Source: Mobula hypostoma (taxonomy: Eukaryota). Taken from it: DNA of 64,000 nt. The notes under the pieces are model-generated. The model worked only from the letters and a program-made list of their open reading frames with translations. It had not been told where the DNA came from and did no database searches. This document shows positions 10,396-59,885 of this stretch, in pieces (position 1 is the first letter of the stretch; each line of letters starts with the position of its first letter). The stretch lies in the NCBI RefSeq assembly GCF_963921235.1, contig NC_086108.1, forward strand, positions 68,946,001-69,010,000, read 5' to 3'. The position numbers and the translations under genes are program-made.

Positions 10396-10654
10396 TTAGT
10401 AGTGAGGGGGTGGTGGGTTTAAAAAAAAACACACACAAGTGAGCTAAGGGTTACCTAAAATACTTTCATTCTGATTTAATAGTATTGATGAATGTGTATA
10501 GCAAGTGACAACCCAAAATGCCGGTCAACAAAGGCAGCCCATCATGATTAAAAACACAAACATGAGGAAATCTGCAGATGCTGGAAATTCAAACAACACA
10601 CACAAAAAATGCTGGTGAACGCCACAGGCCAGGCAACACCTATAGGAAGAGGTA

Positions 10655-10692
10655 CAGCCGACATTTCGAGCCAAGACCCTTCGTCAGGACTA
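10655..10692 (-). ncRNA. Hammerhead ribozyme copy, slightly degenerate, sense to FAF1
   Basis: Reverse complement reads UAGUC-CUGACGA-A-GGGUCUUGGCUC-GAAA-UGUC^GGCUG. Confidence 0.6.
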
Positions 10693-11577
10693 ACTGAAAG
10701 AAGAGATAGTAAGAAATTTGAAAGTGGGAGGGGGAGGGGGAGATCCGAAATGATAGGAGAAGACAGGAGGGGGAGGGATAGAACTCAGAGCTGGAAAGTT
10801 GATTGGCAAAAGGGATACAAGGCTGGAGAAGGGAGAGGATCATGGGACCAGAGGCCTAGGGAGAAAGAAAGCGGGGGTGGGGGGGAGCCCAGAGTTATAG
10901 TGAGAGGGCAAGGGGAACCCTATTCCTAGTGGGGTGGCAGAAGGGTGGGGTGAGAACAGATGTGCATGAAATGGGAGAGATGTGTTTGAGAGCAGAGTTG
11001 ATGGTGGAGGAAGGACTAGGACTTCCACTAGGAATAGGGTTCCCCTTTGTCCTCACCTACCACCCCATCAGCCTCCGGGTCCAACATATAATTCTCCGTA
11101 ACTTCCGCCACCTCCAACGGGATCCCACCACTAAGCACATCTTTCCCTCCCCCCCCTCTGCTTTCCGCAGGGATTGCTCCCTACGCGACTCCCTTGTCCA
11201 TTCGTCCCTGCCCCCCATCCCTTCCCACCGATGTCCCTCCTGGCATTTATCCTTGTAAGTGGAACAAGTACTACATATGCCCTTACACTTCCTCCCTCAC
11301 CACCATGCAGGGCCCCAGACAGTCTTTCCAGGCGAGGCGACATTTCACCTGTGAGTCGGCTGGGGTGATATACTGCGTCTGGTGCTCACAATGTGGCCTT
11401 CTATATATTGGCGAGACCCAATGCGGGTGGGAGACTGTTTCGCTGAATACCTATGCTCTGTCCGCCAGAGAAAGCAGGATCTCTCAGTGGCCACACATTT
11501 TAATTCCACGTCCCATTCCCATTCTTATATATCTATCCATGGCCTCCTCGACTGTCAAGATGAAGCCACACTCAGGT

Positions 11578-12210
11578 TAGATTAGATTATGAGGACGCTC
11601 AGTCCTCGTTTATTGTCATTTAGAAATGCATGCATTAAAAAATGATACAATGTTCCTCCAGAATGATATCACAAGAAACACAGGACAAACCAAGACTAAA
11701 ACTGATGAAACCACATAATTATAACATATAGTTACAACAGTGCAAAGCAATACCGTAATTTGATAAAGAGCAGACCATGGGCACGGTAAAAAAAAGTCTC
11801 AAAGTCCCGATAGCCTCATCATCTCATGCAGGTGGTAGAAGGGAGAAACTCTCCCTGCCATGAACCTCCAAGCACCGCAAACTTGCCGATGCAGCACCAT
11901 TGGAAACACCCGACCGCAGCGGACTCTCTGAGTCCGTCCAAAAACTTCGAGCCTCCGACCAGCCCCTCCAACACAGCCTCTCTGAGCACCACCCTCTGCC
12001 GAGCACTTCGACCCTGCCCCGGCCACTGAACAACAAGCAAAGCCGAGAACTCAGGGCCTTCTCCTCCAGAAATTCTGAACCACACACTAGCAGCAGCAGT
12101 GAAGCAGGCATTTCAGAAGTTTCACCAGATGTTCCTCCATGCTCTCACGTCCGTCTCCATCAATTCAGGATTGTGCACGGAACCCTACTTGACAAATAAC
12201 AGACATCCAA
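11578..12210 (-). mobile_element. Non-coding retroposon of about 630 bp with a (TCTAA)n tail, nested in the Penelope element
   Basis: caggtt repeated on both sides; the Penelope frame resumes (ATLR|LEEQHLIF); homologous to 22845-23432. Confidence 0.8.
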
Positions 12211-12400
12211 CAGGTTGGAGGAACAACACCTGATATTCCCTCGGCCTCCCGTCCCATGATCCTCTCCCTTCTCCAGCCTTGCATCCCTTTTGCCAATCAA
12301 CTTTCTAGCTCTTAGCTCCATCGCTCCCCCTCCTGTCTTCTCCTATCATTTTGCATCTCCCCCTCCCACTTTCAAATCTTTTACTATCTCTTCTTTCAGT

Positions 12401-12438
12401 TAGTCCTGACGAAGGGTCTTGGCCCGAAACGTCGACTG
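12401..12438 (+). ncRNA. Minimal type-I hammerhead ribozyme in a Penelope pseudo-LTR
   Basis: UAGUC-CUGACGA-A-GGGUC UU GGCCC-GAAA-CGUC^GACUG: conserved core, stem I UAGUC/GACUG, stem II, and a palindromic ACGU mini stem III. Confidence 0.8.
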
Positions 12439-12959
12439 TACCTCTTCCTATAGATGCTGCCTGGCCTGCTGCATTCACCAGCATTTTTTGTGTCCATCAT
12501 GATTAATGCAGCTGCTTCAGTACTACATCCTGCATAATTTACCCCCAAAGGGATTAAAATACTCATCATTTTTCTTTCACAATGTGCTTCCAAGCAAGAC
12601 CTTAGTATCTCATTTCTAATTTCCGAGGCAAAATGCAACATTTACCATTAAATGTAGATTTCACCTTGATCTCACTCATTGGAGATCTACAGAAGCACTC
12701 AGCAGTATTAATATTCATTCTGTTGTTTCTTAGCTTCAACAAAACAGATTCTGTCTTTGATCCTTCTGCAACATCCTCTCTCTCGAGCATTATAAGATTG
12801 TCTTTAATTAATCCTGTACTCCTCTCCCTTTCTTTCCTTCCCCAGCCGTGTACAATTCAGGAATCTTTATGCTCAAATAAAGATAGATGAGAAAAGGGCC
12901 AGCCATTCTGCCTCTTGCACCTGCACCACTGCTTACTGTGAACTTATTGTGACACATGC

Positions 12960-16671: not shown

Positions 16672-19425
16672 TGGAAGAAGGGTTCCGATGTTTCAGATGT
16701 GATCGAGGCAGAGGAATGAAAGGTGGGGGAGTAGCATTGCTTGTTAGGGAAAATATTACAGCAGTGCTCAGGCAGGACAGATTAGAGGGCTTGTCTACTG
16801 AGTCCTTATGGGTGGAGCTGAGAAACAGGAAAAGGTATGGCCATATTAGTGGGATTGTATTACAGACCACCCAATAGTCAACGAGACTTGGAAGAGCAAA
16901 TCTGCAGAGAGATAGCAGGCAACTGCAGGAAACATAAAGTTGTGGTGGTAGGGGATTTTAATTTTCCATACATTGATTGGGACTCCCATACTGTTAGGGG
17001 TCTAGATGGTTTAGAGTTTGTAAAATGTGTTCAGGAAAGTTTTCTAAATCAGTATATAGAGGGACCAACTAGAGGGGATGCAATATTGGATCTACTGTTA
17101 GGAAACGAATTAGGGCAAGTGACAGAAGTCTCTGTAGGGGAGCACTTTGGTTCCAGTGATCATAACACCATTAGTTTCAATTTGATCATGGACAAGGATA
17201 GATCTGGTCCTAGGGTTGAGGTTCTGAACTGGAAGAAGGCCAAATTTGAAGAAATGAGGAAGGATCTAAAAAGCGTGGATTGGGACAGGTTGTTCTCTGG
17301 CAAAGATGTGATTGGTAGGTGGGAAGCCTTCAAAGGGGAAATTTTGAGAGTGCAGAGTTTGTATGTTCCTGTCAGGATTAAAGGCAAATTGAATAGGAAT
17401 AAGGAACCTTGGTTCTCAAGGGATATTGCAACTCTGATAAAAGAAGAAGAGGGAGTTGTATGAAATGTATAGGAAACAGGGGGTAAATCAGATGCTTGAG
17501 GAGTATAAGAAGTGCAAGAAAATACTTAAGAATGAAATCAGGAGGGCAAAAAGAAGACATGAGGTTGCCTTGGCAGTCAAAGTGAAGGATAATCCAAAGA
17601 GCTTTTACAAGTATATTAAGAGCAAAAGGATTGTAAGGGATAAAATGGGTCCTCTTGAAGATCAGAGTGGTCGGCTTTGTGCGGAACCAAAAGAAATGGG
17701 GGAGATCTTAAATAGGTTTTTTGCGTCTGTATTTACTAAGGAAGCTGGCATGAAATCTATGGAATTGAGGGAATCAAGTAGTGAGACCATGGAAACTGTA
17801 GATTGAAAAGGAGGAGGTGCTTGCTGTCTTGAGGAAAATTAAAGTGGATAAATCTCCGGGACCTGACAGAGTGTTCCCTCGGACCTTGAAGGAGACTCGT
17901 GTTGAAATTGCGGGGGCCCTGGCAGAAATATTTAAAATGTCGCTGTCTACGGGTGAAGTGCCGGAGGATTGGAGAGTGGCTCATGTTGTTCCGTTGTTTA
18001 AAAAAGGATCAAAAAGTAATCCGGGAAATTATAGGCCGGTGAGTTTAACATCAGTAGTAGGTAAGTTATTGGAGGGAGTACTAAGAGACAGAATCTACAA
18101 GCATTTGGATAGACAGGGGCTTATTAGGGAGAGTCAACATGGCTTTGTGCGTGGTAGGTCATGTTTAACCAATCTGTTGGAGTTTTTCGAGGAGGTTACC
18201 AGGAAAGTGGATGAAGGGAAGGCAGTGGATATTATCTACATGGACTTCAGTAAGGCCTTTGACAAGGTCCCGCATGGGAGGTTAGTTAGGAAAATTCAGT
18301 CGCTAGTTATACATGGAGAGGTGGTAAATTGGATTAGACATTGGCTCGATGGAAGAAGCCAGAGAGTGGTGGTAGAGAATTGCTTCTCTGAGTGGAGGCC
18401 TGTGACTAGTTGGTGTGCCACAGGGATCAGTGCTGGGTCCATTGTTATTTGTCATCTATATCAATGATCTGGATGATAATGTGGTAAATTGGATCAGCAA
18501 GTTTGCTGATGATACAAAGATTAGAGGTGTAGTAGACAGTGAGGAAGGTTTTCAGAGCCTGCAGAGGGACTTGGACCATCTGGAAAAATGGGCTGAAAAA
18601 TGGCAGATGGAGGTTAATACTGACAAGTGTGAGGTATTGCGCGTTGGCAGGACAAACCAATGTAGAACATACAGGGTTAATGGTAAGGCACTGAGGAGTG
18701 CAGTGGAACAGAGGGATCTGGGAATACAGATACAAAATTCCCTAAAAGTGTCGTCACAGGTAGATAGGGTCGTAAAGAGAGCTTTTGGTACATTGGCCTT
18801 TATTAATCAAAGTATTGATTATAAGAGCTGGAATGTTATGATGAGGTTGTATAGGGCATTGGTGAGGCCGAATCTGGAGTATTGTGTTCAGTTTTGGTCA
18901 CCAAATTACAGGAAGGATATAAATAAGGTGGAAAGAGTGCAGAGAAGGTTTACAGGGATGTTGCCGGGACTTGAGAAACTCAGTTACAGAGAAAAGTTGA
19001 ATAGGTTAGGGCTTTATTCCCTGGAGCGTAGAAGAATGAGGGGAGATTTGATAGAGGTATATAAAATTATGATGGGTATAGATAGAGTGAATGCAAGCAG
19101 GCTTTTTCCACTGAGGCAAGGGGAGAAAAAAACCAGAGGACATGGGTTAAGAGTGAGGGGGGAAAAGTTTAAAGGGAACATTAGGGGGGGCTTCTTCACA
19201 CAGAGAGTGGTGGGAGTATGGAATGAGCTGCCAGACGAGGTGGTAAATGCGGGTTCTTTTTTAACACTTAAGAATAAATTGGACAGATACATGGATGGGA
19301 GGTGTATGGAGGGATATGGTCCCTGTGCAGGTCAGTGGAACTAGGCAGAAAATGGTTCGGCACAGCCAAGAAGGGCCAAAGGGCCTGTTTCTGTGCTGTA
19401 GTTTCTATAGTTTCAATGGTTTCTA
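16672..19425 (+). mobile_element. Young 5'-truncated CR1 LINE with near-complete ORF2 (APE endonuclease plus RT) broken by about 4 frameshifts
   Basis: ORFs 16837-17463 (YYRPP, VGDFN, SDHN), 17456-17806, 17817-18467 (NYRPVSLTS, QHGF, DFSKAFDKV) and 18415-19344 (PQGSVLGP, KFADD); 8-nt repeat tail gtttctata. Confidence 0.95.
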
Positions 19426-29325: not shown

Positions 29326-30055
29326 GAGTTGCTTCCTAATCATAGCAATCTATTAATTAGTCTGCTACAAATCCTGTTCCAATGCTAGGACATACATTGG
29401 AGGAGAAACATTGAAAAAAAAGAGCAAGTCAGCTGCCACTTCAAAAATAATCCAGATCATCAAACACAACAGATCACCAATGTACTAATGAAGAAGCAAA
29501 ACATTGACAAAATATTTTTCAGTAAGATCTTTGAGCTGGATTAATCATCATATCACATATTTTATTAGAAAGATTTGCCATCTTGGACACATTAGCTTTT
29601 CAAACATTCAACTTAAACAATTTCCACATCTACTGAACTTAGCAGACCCCAAAGTTAGGTACGAAGAATGTGCATGAGGAAAGATGTTTATTTCACTCCT
29701 GGTTTAACCAAATGAGTCATTTATGGATGTCTCAATTGATAACCCAATTTGTGTTCATTAAGCACAAGAGAGACTGCACCAGTTTGAAACTTGCAGCAAC
29801 ACACACGAAATGCTGGAGGAACTCAGCAGGTCAGGTGTCATCTACAGAGAGAAATGAACAGTCAATGTTTCAGGGTCAGACAAAGACCCTTCATCAGGAT
29901 TGTTGATTAAGAACTGTTATTACACAGCAAATATAACAAAGTAAAGACAGCACGACCCGCCCAAGTATCTGTTTAAAATTTGGTCCAGCCTTTCAAAGTT
30001 ACCTTGCCTTGAAATTACAACAAGATACACAATGTTGCAATGTTGAACAAAGCAT

Positions 30056-30258
30056 AAACACAAAGGATTCTGCAAATGCTGGAAATCCAGAGTAACACAC
30101 ACACAAAATGTTGCATCTATGGAAAGTAATAAAGAGTTGACGTTTCAGGCCGAGACCTTTCACCAGTTCAGATGAAGGGTCTCAGCCCAAAACAGCGACT
30201 CTTTATTCTTTTCCATTGATGCTGTCTGACCTACTGAGTTCCTCCAGCATGTTGTGCT
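30056..30258. mobile_element. Palindromic mini-element of about 200 bp made of two inverted Penelope pLTR ends
   Basis: gagttgacgtttcaggccgagacctttca...tgaagggtctcagcccaaaacagcgactc fold-back; degenerate 13-bp flanks ttgaacaaagcat / tggaataaagtat. Confidence 0.7.
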
Positions 30259-30289
30259 TGGAATAAAGTATCATTACTGCAGTAATGTG

Positions 30290-31960: not shown

Positions 31961-31992
31961 CTTTTTATCTCTTAAAAAGCAGTAAAACTCAC

Positions 31993-32084
31993 ACTGTCAT
32001 TTACATCTGCTGACTTCCAACCTTTTAACTGCATTTGTGGTACAGGAATCTGCAGCTCATTTTCTAAAATTTGCTTGATAGCAC
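31993..32084 (-). CDS. FAF1: FAF1 coding exon (equivalent to exon 5), 92 nt
   Basis: tttgcAG acceptor and GTgagt donor. Encodes (G)AIKQILENELQIPVPQMQLKGWKSADVNDS, matching FAF1 GEIKQILENELQIPVSKMLLKGWKTGDVEDS. Phase 1 in, phase 0 out. Confidence 0.96.
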
Positions 32085-46897: not shown

Positions 46898-47097
46898 CAA
46901 CTGTGTTGGTATCTTCAACTACCACCTCCACATTTCTGTCACGGTATTCCACTCTAAAATTCAACATTCTTGGTTGCCTTTCCACTATTGGTCTTGATGG
47001 TGTTTTGGGGCAGAAGGTCGAGGAAGTGGAAGAGGAAGAGGACTGACCAGTAGATCCAAACGTTGGATCCTGTGACGTCTCACCACTAACAAACTCA
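46898..47097 (-). CDS. FAF1: FAF1 coding exon (equivalent to exon 4), 200 nt, start of UBL1
   Basis: tttgcAG acceptor and GTaag donor. Encodes EFVSGETSQDPTFGSTGQSSSSSTSSTFCPKTPSRPIVERQPRMLNFRVEYRDRNVEVVVEDTNTV(G), matching FAF1 IVERQPRMLDFRVEYRDRNVDVVLED. Confidence 0.96.
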
Positions 47098-47632
47098 CTG
47101 CAAACAGATAAAAAAATTCAAACATGAACAATAATATTACCAAAACATCTAAAACAGACATAGGAAACTACTCTGGCATACCAAACAATCACTGGTCAAT
47201 TTCTTAGATAGTTAGCTCTGGTTTGTGCATTGAAAAGTTATCTGTATCTGGGCAGCTGGCTGCATGGCTGGCCAAGTTATGAACTGATCAAAACTATAAA
47301 AATGGTAAAGCAAGATTTTATGGACAAGATTTTCAATATTATACTTTTTTTAAAAAAAGTCACCAACTAAAGCTGGTTTTAATTTAGTTTGTAAAATGTA
47401 AACCATTTCAGAACAAATATTGAAAGCCCTAAAAAGAGTGTAATAAAATCTTTCACAATGAATTCAGAATTATTCATACATTTACACCCAAGGACACAGA
47501 AACTTCGAAATTCTCATAATAAATCGAAATCACAATACAACTTCCACTTCCTCTATTATGCAAATGTTCATCTGTAGGTTACAAATGCATTAATAATGAG
47601 AAAACCATACAAAAATAACAACCTCAACAATT

Positions 47633-48094
47633 ACGAGGAAATCTGCAGATGCTGGAATTTCAAGCAATACAAGTTGCTGGTGAACGCAGCAGGCCAGGCA
47701 GCATCTCTAGGAAGAGGTACAGTCAACGTTTCAGGCCGAGACCCTTTGTCAGGACTAACTGAAAGAAGACCTAGTAAGAGATTTGAAAGTGGGAGGGGGA
47801 GGGGGAGATCCGAAATGATAGGAGAAGACGGCGGGGGGGAGGGATGGAGCCAAGAGCTGGACAGGTGATTGGCAAAAGGGATATGAGAGGATCATGGGAC
47901 AGGAGGCCTAAGGAGAAAGAATCCCCCTCCTGTCTTCTCCTATCATTTCGGATCTCCCCCTCCCCCTCTCAAATCTCTTACTAGCTCTTCTTTCAGTTAG
48001 TCCTGACGAAGGGCCTCGGCCCAAAACGTCGACTATACCTCTTCCTAGAGATGCTGCCTGGCCTGCTGCATTCACCAGCAACTTTTATGTGTGT
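47633..48094. mobile_element. Non-coding palindromic Penelope derivative (two inverted pLTRs, each with a hammerhead motif)
   Basis: 47670-47830 is the reverse complement of 47930-48085; 13-bp flanks aacctcaacaatt (47620-47632) / aacctctacaatt (48095-48107). Confidence 0.85.
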
Positions 48095-49674
48095 AACCTC
48101 TACAATTGTAGGGTTTTAGCAGATTATAAAAACTTGTTTTAAATATCTCAATTATTCTGATGACAATCAAGAAAAATAGCTAAGCAGCTTTTGAATTATA
48201 CTTCTTCGCAGTTGGTAGGACAATTCCTACTGATAATTCAAGTTATCTATACATATATTTAACACAACTGGAATCAAATCTGAAATGCTGACACACTAAC
48301 AGAATGACTAAGTGTCTTCCGGTTGCTTTGGATCCATATGAAAATTTACTTTTTTATTATTTCTCATCTTTTTAAAATCACACGAGCTGGTCACCTAGCC
48401 CAAAGTCTCCATGCCAACCCTGAGAGGATTCGTATTCCTCAAATTTCTTACATGCCCATCAACTACTCCTATTTTCAGACAACCTGCCAATTCACAGTAG
48501 TCAATTAATTTACCTTTGGGACACGGGAGTAAATTAGGGCAGATCAACCAAAGGCACTGCATCTGTTCAGCACCCACAGCTATGCCCCTGTGACATTCAT
48601 GCACTCTCATTCACCAATAACTCATAAAATGGTTGACATGAGAATTAAGCAAATATCATCTTGATATAATTTAGAAAATTATGACTTGGGTTTAGATATG
48701 TTGCAAGTGAATAATTAGCACAAATGGATATATTCTGAATTTAATCATTTAACGAAGTGTACTTAATCATTTAACGAAGTGTCATATAAAGATGAACGCA
48801 CAAGGGGGAATAGGCCACTCAGCCACAGGGGTGAAACTTGTTCAACAGGAAACCATTAAGCAGACAAGGTCTATATTTTCCAGAGATCAGGTAAGTGAGA
48901 AGTGATCTAACTTCAGTTTAAGATGGTGTTACTGAAGGTGGGCAACAACTTAATGGGTGTTTTCAAAGCAAGAAATTTGACTAAATGCTCTATTAATAAC
49001 ACTTCTTATATGGAAAATTGTGGTAAACCATCACTGCAAACAATGAAGTAGTGAATGAAGGCAAGGCTGATCGGTGGGTCGAGGCGTGTGAATGCAAGAC
49101 AGACTAGAGCAAGGTAGAGGCATGTTCCTGGAGAAGTTGGAACTTTGGAGACAACGTTGGAGCGACCAGAGCGGTACTAAAGTTGAAGCGGAGTTGTTTT
49201 GGTGCCCAACTACCTAAACGGGGAGCAAGGTTTGATCCTTCTAAACGCCGCATTGATTTGGAAAGATTGAATACATGCCAGAAGCAGCCTAGAGTATCAC
49301 TGCAGCGGGGCCCAGGTTCGAGTGTGGGGGACAATCCAGTGCTTGAACAATTTAAACACTAGGCCAAATGGACTGAAAAGGCAGGGTGTCAGGACTGGAG
49401 ACAAGAGTTGAGCTGGATCTGCTCCACAATGTTTTACTCTGTTCTCCTCAGCGTTGAGGCTGAGGCTGTGCCCTGCTCTGGCTCCTACGCGCTTCGTGTC
49501 TGCAAGCTTCACAGAGATTTTGCCTTACTATACAATGAGCTAAGAACTAGGCTACGGGTCTACTCTGGCTGCTCCAGGATTCAGATCCATGGACTCAAGT
49601 TGGTTCGGAATGCTGCTGCTTGCTTTTACTGTTTGCGTGATTTGTGGGGTTTTTTCGCCCTCTTTCTCAGCATA

Positions 49675-52370
49675 CAGGTTTCCCCCGCCATCCGAAGGTA
49701 GAGTGTTCCAATGAAACAGTTCGTAAGTCGAAATGTCGTAAAGTGAAGAAGCAATTACCATTTATTAACATGGGAAAAATTTTTGAGCATTTCCAGACCC
49801 AAAAAATAACCTACCAAAACATGCCAAATAACACATAAAACCTAAAATAACAGTAACATAAAGTAAAAGCAGGAATGATATGATAAATACACAGCCTATA
49901 TAAAGTAGAAATACTTTTTGCAATCATTGAAGTACTGTCTAGCACAGCGAAAATCTCACGCATGTGCTCTCGGCAGAAGCACTCTCTCCAGTAACCTTTA
50001 AACTATGAGGCTGCCAAATTGTACCAAATAACAAATCATACTAAATAACACAAAAATACACAGCCCATATAAAGTAGAAATACTTTTTGCAATCATTGAA
50101 GCACAGTCTAGCGCAGCGAAAATCTCACGCATGCGCTCTCGGCGCAGGCGCTGTCGGTGGAAGCACTCTCTCCAGTAACCTTTAAGCTATGAGGCTGCCA
50201 AATCGTACCAAATAACAAATCATACTAAATAACACAAGAATACACAACCTATATAAAGTAGAAATAATGTATGTATAGTGTAGTTTCACTTACGGGAATC
50301 GGGATGGTGTGTTAGGCTGAGTCATCGGAAATTGGGGTGGTGGGAGGTAGAGGAGACTGGGGTGTCATCTCATCGTAATCTATTTTCAATAGGGCAGCCA
50401 GGTCATCATCTTCTATGTCTGCCTGCCTCGATGTCGAAGGTCGAGATTCGTCGTCTGCTGTGGCTGATGTGCAAGGCTTGAAAAACGACAGTATACTTGA
50501 CTGCTGAGCCTCGCGCATTTTTAGATCATAGAGTTCTTTGTAAGCACTCAAAACATCCTGCAAACCTACCCTAAACCTACGTGCCCTTTCAAAATTAAAG
50601 TCATACTTTTCTGCAATCATTGCAGCGTTGTCAATCGCAGCGAAAATCTCACGCAACTGCTTCACGTTCAGTCCTGGACGACTTCATTTTTGCCACTGCG
50701 TTCGGTTTCGATTGTTATCCTTTCCTCTTGCAATTGCATCAGCTCTTCATCTGTCAATTCTTGGTCGTGGAATGCCAAAACCTCTTCAACATCATCTTCG
50801 TCAGCTTCCACAAACCCAGCCTCCTTAGCCAAGCTCACTATTGTCGTATTTATTGTTGATGGTTCGAAGCCTTTAAAATCGTTCACTGCTTCGGGACATA
50901 GTTTCCTCCAAACGCCATTTCTCATCGAGACTGTTAGCCTATCGAGAGCATCTCCAATGTTGGCGATTGCCAGTTTTATATTGTAGTCTTTCCAGATCTC
51001 TCACAAAGATGCTTCGGAGTTTCCCTCTCTGTCAAGAGCACTTACAATAAAACGCATCACATTTTGCGTATAGTAAGCCTTAATTGTGGCTATTAGGCCT
51101 TGGCCACACGGCTGCAGCAACGATGTCGTATTCGGCGGTAAGAGCGCAATACGCATGTTACTGCCATACTCGGTAATGGCAGACGGATGAGCAGCACAAT
51201 TATCCACAATCACAAGACACCTATTATCAAGGTCATCTTCTCTACAGTATTTTTCAACAAAAGGACTAACGTATCTGCTCATGTACTCAGAAAAAAGCAC
51301 TTGGGTGTTCCAACTGCTTGGATGTGAACGGAACACAACGGGAAGTGTTTTCTTATCAACGCCTTTAAGTGCCCTTGGATTTTCTGAATGGTACCCTAGT
51401 AGAAGCTTAATGGCGTTAGTAATAGGCATTAGGGTAAGCCTGTCCTTCGATGCCTTGTATCCCTTTAGCCTGCTTTTCTTCTTTCGAAATAAATGTCTTA
51501 CTCAGCAATTTTTTCCAATAAATTGCAGTTTCGTCACAGTTAAACACTTGCTTATAGGAATAACCACCCTCTGTAATTATTTACTTCAGTTTTGCTGGGG
51601 ACCTTTCAGCAGCTTCAGTTATCAACCGAAGCACTCTGTCCAATAAACGTTAAACTATGAAGCTGCCCTCACCTCAGAAACTGATCAAACCACCCGTGAC
51701 TACCTTTAAATTCCACTTTCGCAATACTTTCATCACCAATGGCCAGTGCTTTCTGTTTCAGCTTATTAAAAAGACTGACTGATTTCTCCTTAAGTATAAG
51801 ATAACTTAAAGGAACACCACGTTTTGTACACCCATCAATCCACTCAAGCAATAGACTTTCCATTTTATCCATTACTGGATGCCAACTAAGAGAGACCACT
51901 TTGCTACGAGCAGAGCCAACAGTAACATCGGCAGCTTTCAAGATTTTTTTCTCCGCGTGTAAATAGTGCGAATGGTGGATGCAGGCAAGTTCAACACGCA
52001 GACAATGTCCTTACTTCGTTCACCATGGTCGAAATGCTTAATTATGTCTAGTTTTACGCTAAGTGTAACACCCTTATGAGCTCTTTTAGGCTTTTCCGAT
52101 ACCTTAGAACTCACCTCGCTAACAGATACACAAAATAAATCGAGATAAAGCATGTGTTTAAGCAATGGCGGCTAGAATGCAGTTCTGGGGGAGGAGCTTG
52201 GCTGCTCGAGGCGCGCGCTGTTTTTTTCCCCGCACACTGCCATTTTTCGCACGCTGCTTTTTTTCATAACAGTGAAAAAACCTTCTGTTAGCGAAAACAG
52301 GGTACTAATGTAGGTCTTTCGTAACAGTGAGGTTTCATAAAGCAAACGTTCGAAAAGTGGGGGACACCTG
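49675..52370 (-). mobile_element. Tigger/pogo DNA transposon, near full length, with a frameshifted transposase
   Basis: TA TSDs; TIRs caggtttccccc / gggggacacctg. HTH-psq (VTLSVKLDIIK), CENP-B HTH (MESLLLEWI, FKGSHGWF) and DDE_1 (IVDNCAAH, LPPNTTSLLQP) remnants. Confidence 0.93.
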
Positions 52371-52669
52371 TATTAGGTGTTGGCCTTTTATTAAATTGGG
52401 TTCTTTCGGGTTTCTTGTTTTGTGGCTGCCTGTAAGCAGACAAACTTCAAGGCTGTATAACTTATACGTACTTTGATTGAAACATACAAAGGTTTAATTG
52501 GTCTGATATTTCCTCTCGTTCCTACCTAGAACTAGGAGGTCAAAGTTTCTTAATAAGGGTTTGACTATTTACATACCAGATGGCAAGAAAGTTCTGTATT
52601 CAAGAGGCCAGAAGAGATTCAGATACTGAATACATTCAATTCAAAGATCAACACTTTTTCAAAATCTCA

Positions 52670-54150: not shown

Positions 54151-55738
54151 TTTTGATAAATAGACAAGGAGCTTCATATTCACCATTCCTCAGACTAATT
54201 TTACTTAAAAATTAATTTAATTTAGATTCCACATCTGCACCCACTAGGACCTTATTCAGGCCCAACTGCAGCACCATTTCCTGACTGTAGGTGGCCACGT
54301 ACAAAATTAAGCATCCACCATCACCTTTTAATAAGCAACTAAGTTAGTTTTGCCAGTGATGACCACATTCCAAGACATTTTTAAATTGAAACAGGAAGCA
54401 AGTTAACATTTTCCTTGTAAAGAGAATGAGCAAATCAGCTCAATGAAGTCTTTTTACACTACACTGCAATAGTTTACAAGTTAGAATTAAATTATATTTT
54501 AATAGCTATTGCTAATCAACATTGGTAAACTTGAAGACTAGGGAATTATGCTGCAAATTCAAAAATAATTGCCAGTTATTGGTTAGAGAAAAGGAAAAGC
54601 AGAAATCTGAAAATGGGATGGTGGAACAGAGGGGCGGTGGAAATCAGCAAACAAATCAACTAAAACAAAACAATTAGAAATAAACATCTCTTTGACACGT
54701 TTAACGATATTGAATTAAAATAGAAAACTTTGTGAAACTTGTGTAGTCATAACCAAGCTGCACATACAGTGCCTATAAAAAGTATTCACCCCCCCCCCCG
54801 AAAGCTTCCATGTTTTATTGTTTTGCAACATTGAATCAGTGGATTTAATTTGGCTTTTTTGACACTGATCAACAGAAAAGATCCTTTTGTGTCAAAATGA
54901 AAACAAGTTTTTACAAATGGGTCAAAATTTATTACAAATATTAAACACAGAATAATTGAATTCAAGTTAGTATTTAGTAAATACACCTTTGACAGAAATT
55001 AGAGCCTCAAGTCTATGTGGATAGGTCTCTATCAGCTTGGCATATCTAGACACTACAATTTTTCTCCACTCTTCTTTACAAAGCTACCTAAGCTCAGTCA
55101 GATTGCAAGGGGATTATGAGTGAACAGCCCTTTTTAAATCTAGCCACAAATTCTCAGTTAGATTGAGGTCTAAACTCTGACTTGGCCACTCCAAACACTG
55201 TTGTTTTTAAGCCATTCTTGTGCAGCTTTGGCTTTGTCTTGCTGGAAAACAAATCTTCTCTCAAGTTGCAGTTTGCTTGCAGACTGCACCAGATTTTCTT
55301 CCAAGACTTCCCTGTATTATGCTCCATTCATTTTACTCTCTACCTTCACAAGTCTTCCAGGGCCTGCGGCAGTGAAGCATCCCCACAGCACGATGCTACC
55401 ATGTCTCACAGTAAGGACGGTGTGCTCTTGTTGATGTGCAGTATTGACTTACATCAAACATAGCTATTAATCTGATGGTAGAAAGCTCAAGTTTGGTTTC
55501 ATCAGACCATAACATCTTCTTCCAGCTGCCTCCAGTCTCCCACATGCCTTCTGGCAAACTCTAGCCAAGATTTCATGAGTTTCCCCCCTCTCCACCAAGA
55601 GGTTTTCTCTTTGCCACTCTCCCATAAAGCTGCCATTAGTGAAACAACAGGAATTCTGCAGATGCTGGAAATTCAAGCAACATACATCAAAGTTGCTGGT
55701 GAACGCAGCAGGCCAGGCAGCATCTATAGGAAGAGGCG

Positions 55739-55776
55739 CAGTCGACGTTTCAGGCCGAGACCCTTCGTCAGGACTA
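55739..55776 (-). ncRNA. Minimal type-I hammerhead ribozyme, intact, sense to the FAF1 pre-mRNA
   Basis: Reverse complement reads UAGUC-CUGACGA-A-GGGUC UC GGCCU-GAAA-CGUC^GACUG. Confidence 0.8.
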
Positions 55777-56715
55777 ACTGAAGGAAGAGTGAGTAAGGGA
55801 TTTGAAAGCTGGAGGGGGAGGGGGAGATGCAAAATGATAGGAGAAGACAGGAGGGGAAGGGAGGTAACTTCCGCCACCTCCAACGGGATCCCACCACTAA
55901 GCATATCTTTCCCTCCCCGCCTCTCTCTGCATTCCGCAGGGATCGCTCCCTACACAACTCCCTTGTCCATTCGTCCCCCCCATCCCTCCCCACTGATCTC
56001 CCTCCTGGCACTTATCCGTGTAAGCGGAACAAGTGCTACACATGCCCTTACACTTCCTCCCTTACCACCATTCAGGGCCCCAAACAGTCCTTCCAGGTGA
56101 GGCATCACTTCACCTGTGAGTCGACTGGGGTGATATACTGCGTCCGGTGCTCCCGATGTGGCCTTTTATATATTGGTGAGACCCGACGCAGACTGGGAGA
56201 CCGCTTTGCTGAACATCTACGCTCTGTCCGCCAGAGAAAGCAGGATCTCCCAGTGGCCACACATTTTAATTCCACATCCCATTCCCATTCTGACATGTCT
56301 ATCCACGGCCTCCTCTACTGTAAAGATGAAGCCACACTCAGGTTGGAGGAACAACACCTTATATTCCGTCTGGGTAGCCTCCAACCTGATGGCATGAACA
56401 TTGACTTCTCTAACTTCCGCTAGGCCCCACCTCCCCCTCGTACCCCATCTATTACTCTTTTTAATGCACACATTCTTTCTCTCACTCTCCTTTTTCTCCC
56501 TCTGTCCCTCTGAATATACCTCTTGCCCATCCTCTGGGTCACCCCCCCCCCGTCTTTCTTCCCGGACCTCCTGTCCCATGATCCTCTCGTATCCCCTTCT
56601 GCCTATCACCTGTCCAGCTCTCGGCTCCATCCCTCCCCCTCCTGTCTTCTCCTATCATTTTGCATCTCCCCCTCCCCCTCCAGCTTTCAAATCCCTTACT
56701 CACTCTTCCTTCAGT

Positions 56716-56753
56716 TAGTCCTGACGAAGGGTCTCGGCCTGAAACGTCGACTG
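56716..56753 (+). ncRNA. Minimal type-I hammerhead ribozyme, intact
   Basis: tagtc ctgacga a gggtctcggcct gaaa cgtc^gactg; predicted cleavage after 56748. Confidence 0.8.
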
Positions 56754-57205
56754 CGCCTCTTCCTATAGATGCTGCCTGGCCTGCTGCGTTCACCAGCAAC
56801 TTTGATGTATGTTGCATTAGTGAAACACCTGGACAACAGTTGTTGTATATGCAGTCTCTCCCATCTCCGCCAATGAAGCTTGTTACCCCACCAGAACTGT
56901 CATAAGTCTCTTGGTGGCCTCCCTCACTAATTCTCTTCTTGCACAGTCACTCAGTTTTTGAAGACGGCCTGCTCTAGGCAGATTTACAGCTGTGCCGTAT
57001 TCTTTCCATTTCTTGATGATTGACTTAACTATACTCCAAGGGATATTCAGTGACTTGGAAATTTTCTTATATCCATCTCCTGACTTGTGCTTTTCAATCT
57101 TTTCGCCGAGTTGCTTGGAGTGTTCTTTTGCCTTCATGGTGCAATTTTTGCCAGGATACTGACTCACCAGCAGTTAGACCTTCCAGATACAGGTGTATTT
57201 TTACT

Positions 57206-58084: not shown

Positions 58085-58490
58085 TATGGACTGGAAAACC
58101 AATGCCATGGCTGTTTACAAGAAGGGGATGAGCAGACTCAATTTTCTAAGAAAGCTGAGATCCTTCAATGTGTGCAGCAGGACTTTGGAGATCTTTTACC
58201 AGTCTGTTGAAGCAAGGGCAGTCTTCTTTGATGCTTTATGTTGGGGGAGCAGCATCGATGCTGGTGATGCAAAAAGACCAAATAAACTCATCAAAAAAGC
58301 TGGATTCATCCTTGGCTACAACCTGGACTCTTGAGTTAGTGGTGGAGAAGAGGTCCATCATGGACAATCTGGCACATCCTCTCCATGACTACTGAATTAG
58401 CAGTGGAGCACCTTTTTGAACAGACTCATTCAGCTTCACTGTCACAAGGATCGTTACAGAAAATCTTTCCTACAAAATGCAATAAGTATA
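58085..58490 (+). mobile_element. Rex/L2-type LINE 3' fragment
   Basis: SRLNFLRKLRSFNVC...IFYQSV...CWGSSI. Confidence 0.8.
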
Positions 58491-58492
58491 TA

Positions 58493-59395
58493 CAGGTGGC
58501 CCCTGTTTTCTGAACGTTCGCTTTACGACACCTCGCTGTTACGAACGACCTACATTAGTTACCTGTTTTCACTAACAGAAGGTGTTTTCACTGTTACAAA
58601 AAAAGGCAGCGCGCGTCCAAACAGCCAAGCTCCTCCCCTGGAACTCCATTCTAGCAGGCATTGCTTAAACACGTGCTTCATCTTGATTTATTTTGTGCAT
58701 CCATTAGCAAGATAAGTTCTAAGGTATCAGAAAAGCCCAAAAGAGCTCGTAAGGGTGTTACACTTAGCGTAAAACTAGACATAATTAGTGTTTCGATTGT
58801 GGTGAACGAAGTAAGAACATTGTCCACGCGTTGAACTTGCCTGCATCCACCATTCACACTTTTTAAACACAGAGAGAAAGAATTTTGAAAGCTGCCAATG
58901 TTACTGTTGGTTCTGCTCGTAGCAAAGTGGTCTCTCTTAGTCGGCATCCAATAATGGATAAAATGGAAAGTCTATTGCTTGAGTGGATTGATGGGTGTAC
59001 AAAGCATGGTGTTCCATGAAGTTTTCTTGTACTTACGGAGAAATCAGTCAGTCTTCTTAATAAGCTGAAACAGAAAGCACTGGACAATGGTGATGAAAGT
59101 GTTGTGAAAGTGGAATTTAAAGGTAGTCGTGGGTGGTTTGATTGGTTTCTGAGGCGAGGGCAGCTTCATTGTTTAACGTTTACGGGAGAGAGTGCTTCGG
59201 CTGATACTGAAGCTGCCGAAAAGTTCCCAGCAGAACTGAAGAAATAATTACAGAAGGTAGTTATTCATATGTGTTTAACCGCGACGAAACTGCAATTTAT
59301 TGGGAAAAATTGTCGAGCAAGACATTTATTTCGATGGAAGAAAAGCAGGCTGAGGGACACCAGGCATTGAAGGACAGGTTTACCCTAATGTCTAT
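58493..59395 (+). mobile_element. 5' part of a second copy of the Tigger element
   Basis: TA then caggtggccc TIR; highly similar to the reverse complement of about 51425-52370. Confidence 0.9.
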
Positions 59396-59838
59396 TTCAA
59401 ACTATTTGACCTAACATATAATTCACAAGCAGACACAAAGTTGATAAGCGAAAAGCAAGGAAATGCAAAAGCTGGAAATCTGAAATAAAACAGACTGCTA
59501 TAAATAAATCAGTAGTTCAGATAGTACCTGTGGAGAGAGAAACTGAATTAATATTTTAGTTACGTTCATTAGAACCTTTCTGATTTAAGTAAGCATGTTT
59601 TGGTAATATTACCTTTGTTCAGTGACTTTTAAATTGAGTAGCATTTTCTTAAATAAACTGGAATAAATTAGCTGCAATGAATCTCAGCTTGAAAAGTAAA
59701 TGAATGTCCAGTCATAGAAAACAGTATTTTTTGAAAAACTATATCTTTTTTAGAAGTTTATGCCTCAACTTCTGCAACATTTTTCTTCTGAGTATATTTA
59801 ATCAACCTGTGAAAAATGGTAAAGAAAAGAATACTTAC

Positions 59839-59885
59839 TTTTGTAAAATGCCATTCTCTTGTGGAATTATGCCATTAATAGCTGC
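59839..59885 (-). CDS. FAF1: FAF1 internal coding exon (equivalent to human exon 3), 47 nt
   Basis: Minus strand: pyrimidine tract-tttatAG | GCA GCT ATT AAT GGC ATA ATT CCA CAA GAG AAT GGC ATT TTA CAA AA | GTaagt = AAINGIIPQENGILQ(N). Matches the recalled FAF1 segment AAINGVIPQENGILQS. The phase-2 end fits the next exon. Confidence 0.93.

Follow-up and report, generated by a model that had tools for sequence, protein, structure and literature searches.

The 462-bp element at positions 47633-48094 of the window (the whole 64-kb stretch of DNA that was analysed), called element G here, is very probably a one-off product, in which a Neptune-type Penelope-like element (PLE) inserted two truncated copies of its 3' end head to head, and it has since decayed. 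Its architecture is already known; it represents an ordinary outcome of PLE integration and not a new kind of element.

Element G is an imperfect palindrome in which two PLE 3' ends are placed head to head. An inverted pair of pLTRs of ~460 bp had been claimed in the first-pass annotation, the coordinates of which proved to be exact; the refinement made here is that the arms are unequal. The long left arm (47633-47921, minus strand, 289 nt) comprises 3' UTR, a hammerhead-bearing pLTR and a tail; its 5' truncation point lies 169 nt upstream of the hammerhead core. The short right arm (47922-48094, plus strand, 173 nt) is likewise a 3' end of this PLE subfamily, but it has no tail and is truncated closer to the core, at 81 nt upstream. 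The inverted arms (47667-47838 and 47923-48088) show 92% complementarity and are identical at 156 of 167 aligned sites, and the left arm additionally includes the tail of ~30 nt (47633-47666, minus strand), which is of the kind described in the accessible parts of PMC8557442 and PMC11167929. It also includes an unpaired, non-coding stretch of 83 nt (47839-47921, minus strand), which is more 3' UTR of the long arm and constitutes the hairpin loop. The arms meet at 47921-47922, either bluntly or with an overlap of at most 1 nt. The predicted fold reaches -327 kcal/mol (z = -27), and none of 100 shuffled sequences was equally stable. An Rfam search with the element returned five matches at E ≤1, all to miRNA models and all under their gathering scores; an identity as a miRNA was considered and rejected, these sub-threshold MIR matches being put down to the hairpin shape.

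No coding remnant was found in 47633-48094, in agreement with what had been claimed for it: tblastn with the C-terminal ORF of the family gave 14 matches across the 64-kb window and none inside the element. Element G aligns only with parent sequence from ~130 nt past the stop codon of a coding copy, insertion H (55.6-56.8 kb), and its long arm shares 89% identity over 251 nt with the 3' UTR of H at 56553-56802. Both arms are the 3' end of a GIY-YIG-coding repeat, which upholds the earlier view that the element is retro-derived and stems from PLE pLTRs. The arms also share two states that are absent from H and from both arms of a further insertion, A, and since these private states are common to both, the arms come from one source and decayed in place. 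An origin of the arms from two different subfamilies was considered and gained no support, the 6-nt deletion seen at 47791 in aligned contigs matching a unit that was lost in A and not the deletion of the short arm.

A single target-site duplication (TSD) of 13 bp brackets both arms, with AACCTCAACAATT on the left (47620-47632) and AACCTCTACAATT on the right (48095-48107) differing by one mismatch. This bears out the earlier claim that 13-bp direct repeats with one mismatch mark an insertion as a unit. The TSD directly adjoins both ends, and an equally good match was obtained in 1 of 200,000 draws of random 13-mer pairs from the window. ATT or AAT is present inside all five TSDs examined, compared to a background of 44% of the 13-mers of the window. 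The right copy together with its flank (48095-48115) forms an almost perfect palindrome of 21 nt with AATT at its centre; among the five TSDs examined in the window, no excess of palindromic target sites was found.

According to the accessible text of PMC8557442, PMC3846280 and PMC8969392, it is standard for PLEs to have an inverted copy with a truncated 5' end, a tail on one side only and a TSD. The EN+ PLEs with inverted pLTRs described there resemble element G in 5' truncation, in the head-to-head inverted copy, in a TSD around the whole unit, in a tail of 30-40 nt at one end only and in a hammerhead located in the pLTR, and the tail, the inverted truncated copy and the TSD expected of an EN+ PLE insertion are all found in element G. 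Unlike Pen2/Pen2a, for which TSDs of 9-10 bp are given in the part of PMC3846280 consulted, element G has a TSD of 13 bp. Unlike the published inverted PLEs of these sources, it belongs to a vertebrate Neptune-type family and has two arms that both end in the 3' UTR, so that no ORF remains. With MITEs it has in common that it is short and non-coding, with inverted ends and a TSD; unlike in MITEs, its inverted repeat is asymmetric and derived from a retroelement 3' end, and a multi-copy status is unsupported. Symmetric terminal inverted repeats like those of a DNA transposon were not found at its ends, since the left one carries the ~30-nt tail and the right one does not, and both are PLE 3' ends.

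The parent family can be characterised from insertion H (55647-56814, plus strand), a young sister insertion with the same layout as G, a 13-bp TSD and arms identical at 178 of 179 sites. H retains a C-terminal GIY-YIG coding region (55866-56420, 185 ORF codons), which matches Pfam PF01541 (GIY-YIG) with 23.4 bits at a cut-off of 22.6 and contains a CX4CxxC motif (CKRNKCYTC) upstream of a CCHH-type GIY-YIG. In the available portion of PMC8557442, the CCHH-type GIY-YIG is the mark of PLEs and a CX2-5CxxC linker is that of Neptune and Nematis, not of Penelope or Poseidon. As expected of an EN+ PLE insertion, element G shows homology with the 3' region of an element that encodes a C-terminal CCHH GIY-YIG endonuclease, and the linker found in H has the CX2-5CxxC form of Neptune; the parent looks like a Neptune-type EN+ PLE, its clade being assigned by the linker motif only. 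The Poseidon clade had been considered for the parent and was dropped on finding this motif in H. The RT core was not recovered from any copy of the family in the window. A literature search covering mainly open-access main texts turned up no account of this vertebrate Neptune-type parent family.

A search of the 64-kb window with a profile of the pLTR end gave 12 clear ends in eight insertions, four of them solo and four head-to-head inverted; two weak matches (E about 0.02) were left out of these counts. Tailed ends at 15.8 kb (B), 20.2 kb (C), 29.8 kb (D) and 39.9 kb (F) are solo, and the head-to-head pairs A, E, G and H each consist of one tailed and one tailless arm. Insertion A (10552-12493, plus strand) has the layout of G, a perfect 13-bp TSD, a complex junction and a coding remnant; it was later broken up by another repeat and contains an internal deletion. 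Its junction (10895-11047) is made up of three pieces, an inverted pLTR, an inverted ORF piece and a sense ORF, with an 18-nt inverted repeat. Insertion E (about 30049-30262) is a coding-free mini-palindrome of ~215 bp with a double hammerhead, which belongs to an older subfamily and the arms of which meet at the 5' edge of the hammerheads (about 30160-30169). The inverted insertions range from 215 bp (E) over 462 bp (G) and 1.2 kb (H) to 1.9 kb (A), with coding sequence in the latter two, and element G is one point on this continuum and not the smallest. TSDs were recognised in five of the eight insertions, with 13 bp in A, G and H and 12-14 bp in the decayed ones of B and D.

All four inverted insertions of the window have different junctions, and this argues for what the first-pass annotation had offered as its second option, namely an extreme case of truncation with inversion. 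The 23-mer across the junction of G occurs once in the window when up to 3 mismatches are allowed, and the junction is probably single-copy in the genome as a whole. Scans with patterns of the junction or of the hammerhead gave 0 matches in metagenome contigs, viral contigs and prokaryote genomes, in none of which the host would be expected, so that these blanks carry no weight.

The arms end at two distances from the hammerhead. Past its core, the 3' ends extend for 87-93 nt in all three tailless arms that were measured and for 119-135 nt in all five measured tailed arms. Tailless ends are confined to the second arms of inversions (4/4), and the solo copies are all tailed (4/4). Upstream of the core, the tailed and the tailless arm reach 227 and 1376 nt in A, 169 and 81 nt in G, and 91 and 858 nt in H, respectively. 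In H, one arm alone has a tail and the other has 767 nt of extra upstream sequence; since each arm bears sequence that is missing from its partner, neither can have been copied from the other.

The biochemistry available for comparison is that of a Poseidon element studied in vitro, whereas the parent here looks Neptune-like. In the accessible text of PMC11167929, the Poseidon protein, a predicted dimer with a preference for ATT, cleaves the two strands of the target and extends each of them; RT starts at two sites bounding the tail, and hammerhead cleavage is not needed for insertion. The insertions of the window resemble this system from Anolis carolinensis in the two tail-bounding RT starts and in the AT-rich or ATT targets; a difference is that Poseidon is without the CX2-5CxxC linker that the parent of G has (PMC8557442, as above). 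By analogy, the two length classes of 3' ends would fit a tail delimited by two start sites of RT.

We propose that the RT/GIY-YIG protein of the PLE introduced nicks, with a spacing of 13 nt, into the two strands of an AT-rich target in the intron, and that each 3'-OH would have primed a cDNA on the element RNA, the distal start site leading to the tailed arm and the proximal one to the tailless arm. Both cDNAs would have halted in the 3' UTR, after 289 and 173 nt, and would then have been joined head to head, with repair of the staggered nicks creating the 13-bp TSD. Subsequently, the arms have decayed independently and largely at CpG sites, both ribozyme cores being hit. Such a course would involve two priming events, one per RT start site. 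As to where the cDNAs halt, four arms (of D, both of E, and of F; 29901, ~30160-30169 and 40076) stop at most ~12 nt from the 5' edge of the hammerhead, and this edge, not the cleavage site, is a possible stall point of the RT. The short arms of G (47922) and H (55862) start ~4 nt apart on the parent in one C-rich tract, which is possibly a truncation hot spot.

For element G alone, another route to the short arm also fits, that is fold-back self-priming or a template switch on the first cDNA. The short arm of G lies wholly inside the long arm and has both private states in common with it, and self-priming is proposed for head-to-head PLE inversions in the accessible part of PMC3846280. However, this route cannot generate H or A, in which the tailless arm is the longer one, and the junction of G shows neither a palindrome nor clear microhomology. 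We regard it as rather unlikely; with either route, the result would be a one-off product.

Contigs from four of 24 listed sequencing runs (X1, X5, X17 and X18) were aligned to 47052-47951. A 1029-nt contig of X1, which is possibly the source sample and not independent, spans the left flank into the tail with 0 differences (~605 nt). In X5, which is another organism, a contig spans the left junction with 7 differences in 605 nt (~1.2%), and because it crosses this junction, the insertion predates the split from the X5 species. The flank contigs of X17 (30/597 differences, 5.0%) and X18 (35/571, 6.1%) match as far as 47622, after which they continue with 94 and 167 nt, respectively, of sequence that does not fit element G. 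Judged from these run-on lengths and not from the letters, the site is probably empty in the X17 and X18 species, which are 5-6% away.

A quite different history would be that of a non-autonomous palindromic family, in which a hairpin mini-PLE is transcribed as a unit, reinserted in trans by the PLE protein and primed from its tail. In favour of this, element G has a complete tailed 3' end and a clean TSD, the short arms of G and H have neighbouring start points, and the PLE family is very abundant (81,694 contigs aligned in X1). PLE ends can mobilise unrelated sequence in trans and non-autonomous PLEs exist, according to the accessible parts of PMC3846280 and PMC8557442, respectively. In addition, a few other joints, among the 15 listed of 76, were found at several times single-copy depth. 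In X1, the joint 47767>47726 has a depth of 90.8 compared to 12.4 for the flank; in X5 (flank 50.3), the joint 47756>47683 reaches 118 and the joint 47709>47922 reaches 424.6, the latter with 24 letters on its short side. Thirteen of the 15 listed joints are unreliable, their short side comprising fewer than 30 letters, and the joint counts are lower bounds. Since some joints exceed single-copy depth, not every junction need be unique.

Against such a family stand the single occurrence of the junction of G in the window and the differing junctions of the other three inversions. Furthermore, a duplex of 170 bp would have to serve as its template, and the tailless ends of the window are without exception second arms of inversions. 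Contigs overrunning the ends of the aligned stretch are no commoner in the carriers X1 (409/81,694, 0.50%) and X5 (362/85,111, 0.43%) than in the non-carriers X17 (112/14,725, 0.76%) and X18 (104/28,254, 0.37%); this is a weak test, and the rates tell weakly against a large family with the same junction. Contigs that continue at 47921 as ordinary 3' UTR number 230 in X1, 61 in X17 and 155 in X18. The summed depth of X1 on the element (0.7-11 million, compared to 12.4 on the flank, ~five orders) is not a copy number, and the bin past the junction is deep in the insertion-free X17 and X18 too and hence not junction-specific. In the literature search, which covered mainly open-access main texts, no palindromic PLE family that amplifies was found described. 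Altogether, we consider it unlikely that element G belongs to a family of this kind, and equally unlikely that some fold-back stumps, G included, have been remobilised as units from the tailed end by the Neptune protein and have given rise to a palindromic retroelement family that mimics MITEs.

Very unlikely, too, is an origin in which a longer inverted insertion lost its interior once integrated, or in which two separate insertions hit one site. Longer inverted coding copies (A and H) are present in the window and A does have an internal deletion, but in element G a single TSD brackets both arms, the private states are common to the arms and the junction lacks clear microhomology.

Each arm of element G contains a decayed minimal type I hammerhead. 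Core mutations had been noted before in both ribozymes and were found again, namely G8>A (47747) and C17>U (47725) in the left one (47721-47756, minus strand) and G12>A (48023) in the right one (47999-48034, plus strand). The GUU resulting from C17>U, which presumably remains an NUH triplet, is the mildest of the three core changes. CpG-type changes make up 6 of the 11 substitutions between the arms and include all three of those in the hammerhead cores. Both cores are intact in the young insertion H, and the intact base at 47747 is present in 82% of the aligned depth of the X1 contigs. The core changes are CpG-type decay.

Motif and isolated fold identify the hammerheads as minimal type I forms, located in the pLTR as expected for an EN+ PLE. 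In Rfam, no hammerhead match was obtained at E up to 1, the motifs being minimal forms without helix III. The predicted pairing probability of stem I is 0.93-1.0 (right) and 0.55 (left) for the isolated motifs and 0.000 on both strands in the full element. Since the two motifs are located on opposite strands, ~250 nt apart, any transcript of element G bears one hammerhead only. In the modelled hairpin, the hammerheads would be sequestered and could not release a retrozyme circle, and ribozyme or circle function is probably absent from element G. According to the accessible part of PMC4209133, a single minimal hammerhead motif does not cleave in vitro. The dual minimal hammerheads of Schistosoma mansoni described there are likewise on opposite strands, ~100-700 bp apart, and most hammerhead motifs of this species are attributed to truncated PLEs; host and PLE clade differ from those of element G.

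That two hammerheads excise a unit RNA, which becomes a circle and is retrotransposed as a retrozyme, is extremely unlikely and fails on anatomy: two motifs ~250 nt apart without coding capacity, and the descent of animal retrozymes from PLE pLTRs (bioRxiv 10.64898/2026.07.22.740005, accessible part), would agree with it, but there is one motif per transcript and no tandem same-sense units, the cores are neither intact nor foldable in the element (G8>A, G12>A; stem I 0.000), both are paired to the opposite arm, and a lone minimal hammerhead is without cleavage in vitro (PMC4209133, as above). As far as described in the accessible text of PMC7761336 and of the same preprint, non-LTR retrozymes are like element G non-coding and pLTR-derived with a type I hammerhead; they are head-to-tail tandems with at least two same-sense hammerheads and circular RNA, whereas in element G the units stand head to head and each strand bears a single, decayed hammerhead. 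The amplifying retrozyme-like or MITE-like family that was the first option of the first-pass annotation is not supported: the four inversions have four junctions, the hammerheads are on opposite strands and sequestered in the predicted fold, and the cores are CpG-decayed here and intact in the young H.

Element G lies within an intron of FAF1, since exons of this gene flank it. In the direction of transcription, it is located 535 nt before the acceptor of the exon at 46898-47097 (minus strand); this exon and another at 31990-32079 (minus strand) match human FAF1 chains (E 7e-17 and E 8e-10), and the stretch 59839-59885 on the minus strand we take to be a further one, based on a motif and the splice sites. 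The host is a vertebrate, and the repeat suggests a cartilaginous fish. Most of the window is FAF1 intron, with FAF1 exons found only from 32 to 60 kb. At most, element G yields a dsRNA hairpin in the FAF1 pre-mRNA. All eight tailed pLTR ends of the window are on the minus strand, which is the sense strand of FAF1, and all four tailless ones, each a second arm, are on the plus strand. The skew of the tailed ends (8/8) has a two-sided binomial p of 0.008, calculated post hoc, and may reflect insertion bias or selection. Other repeats of the window include a region that codes in several frames for a LINE-like endonuclease/RT (16822-19344), presumably CR1-like by its motifs, and additional fragments of LINE-like sequence, at 35-39 and at 43-46 kb. 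A decayed transposase-like region (50312-52373), which we assume to be Tigger/pogo-like, has a partial inverted second copy at 58490-59402 with 84% identity.

Taken alone, element G is one decayed insertion of known architecture and carries little weight by itself. The set of insertions in the window is a genomic footprint of PLE integration and includes with H a copy that cannot be a fold-back product. This footprint links the two start sites of RT observed in vitro with the inverted structures, a step called undefined in the accessible part of PMC8557442. Fold-back stumps are easily mistaken for MITEs, miRNA hairpins or retrozymes. A family with the same junction, if there were one, would be a retroelement moving in the form of a long hairpin. 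If stumps were indeed remobilised, the abundance of the PLE family, together with the four inverted copies among eight, would mean a very large genomic pool of intronic dsRNA hairpins that could seed such families.
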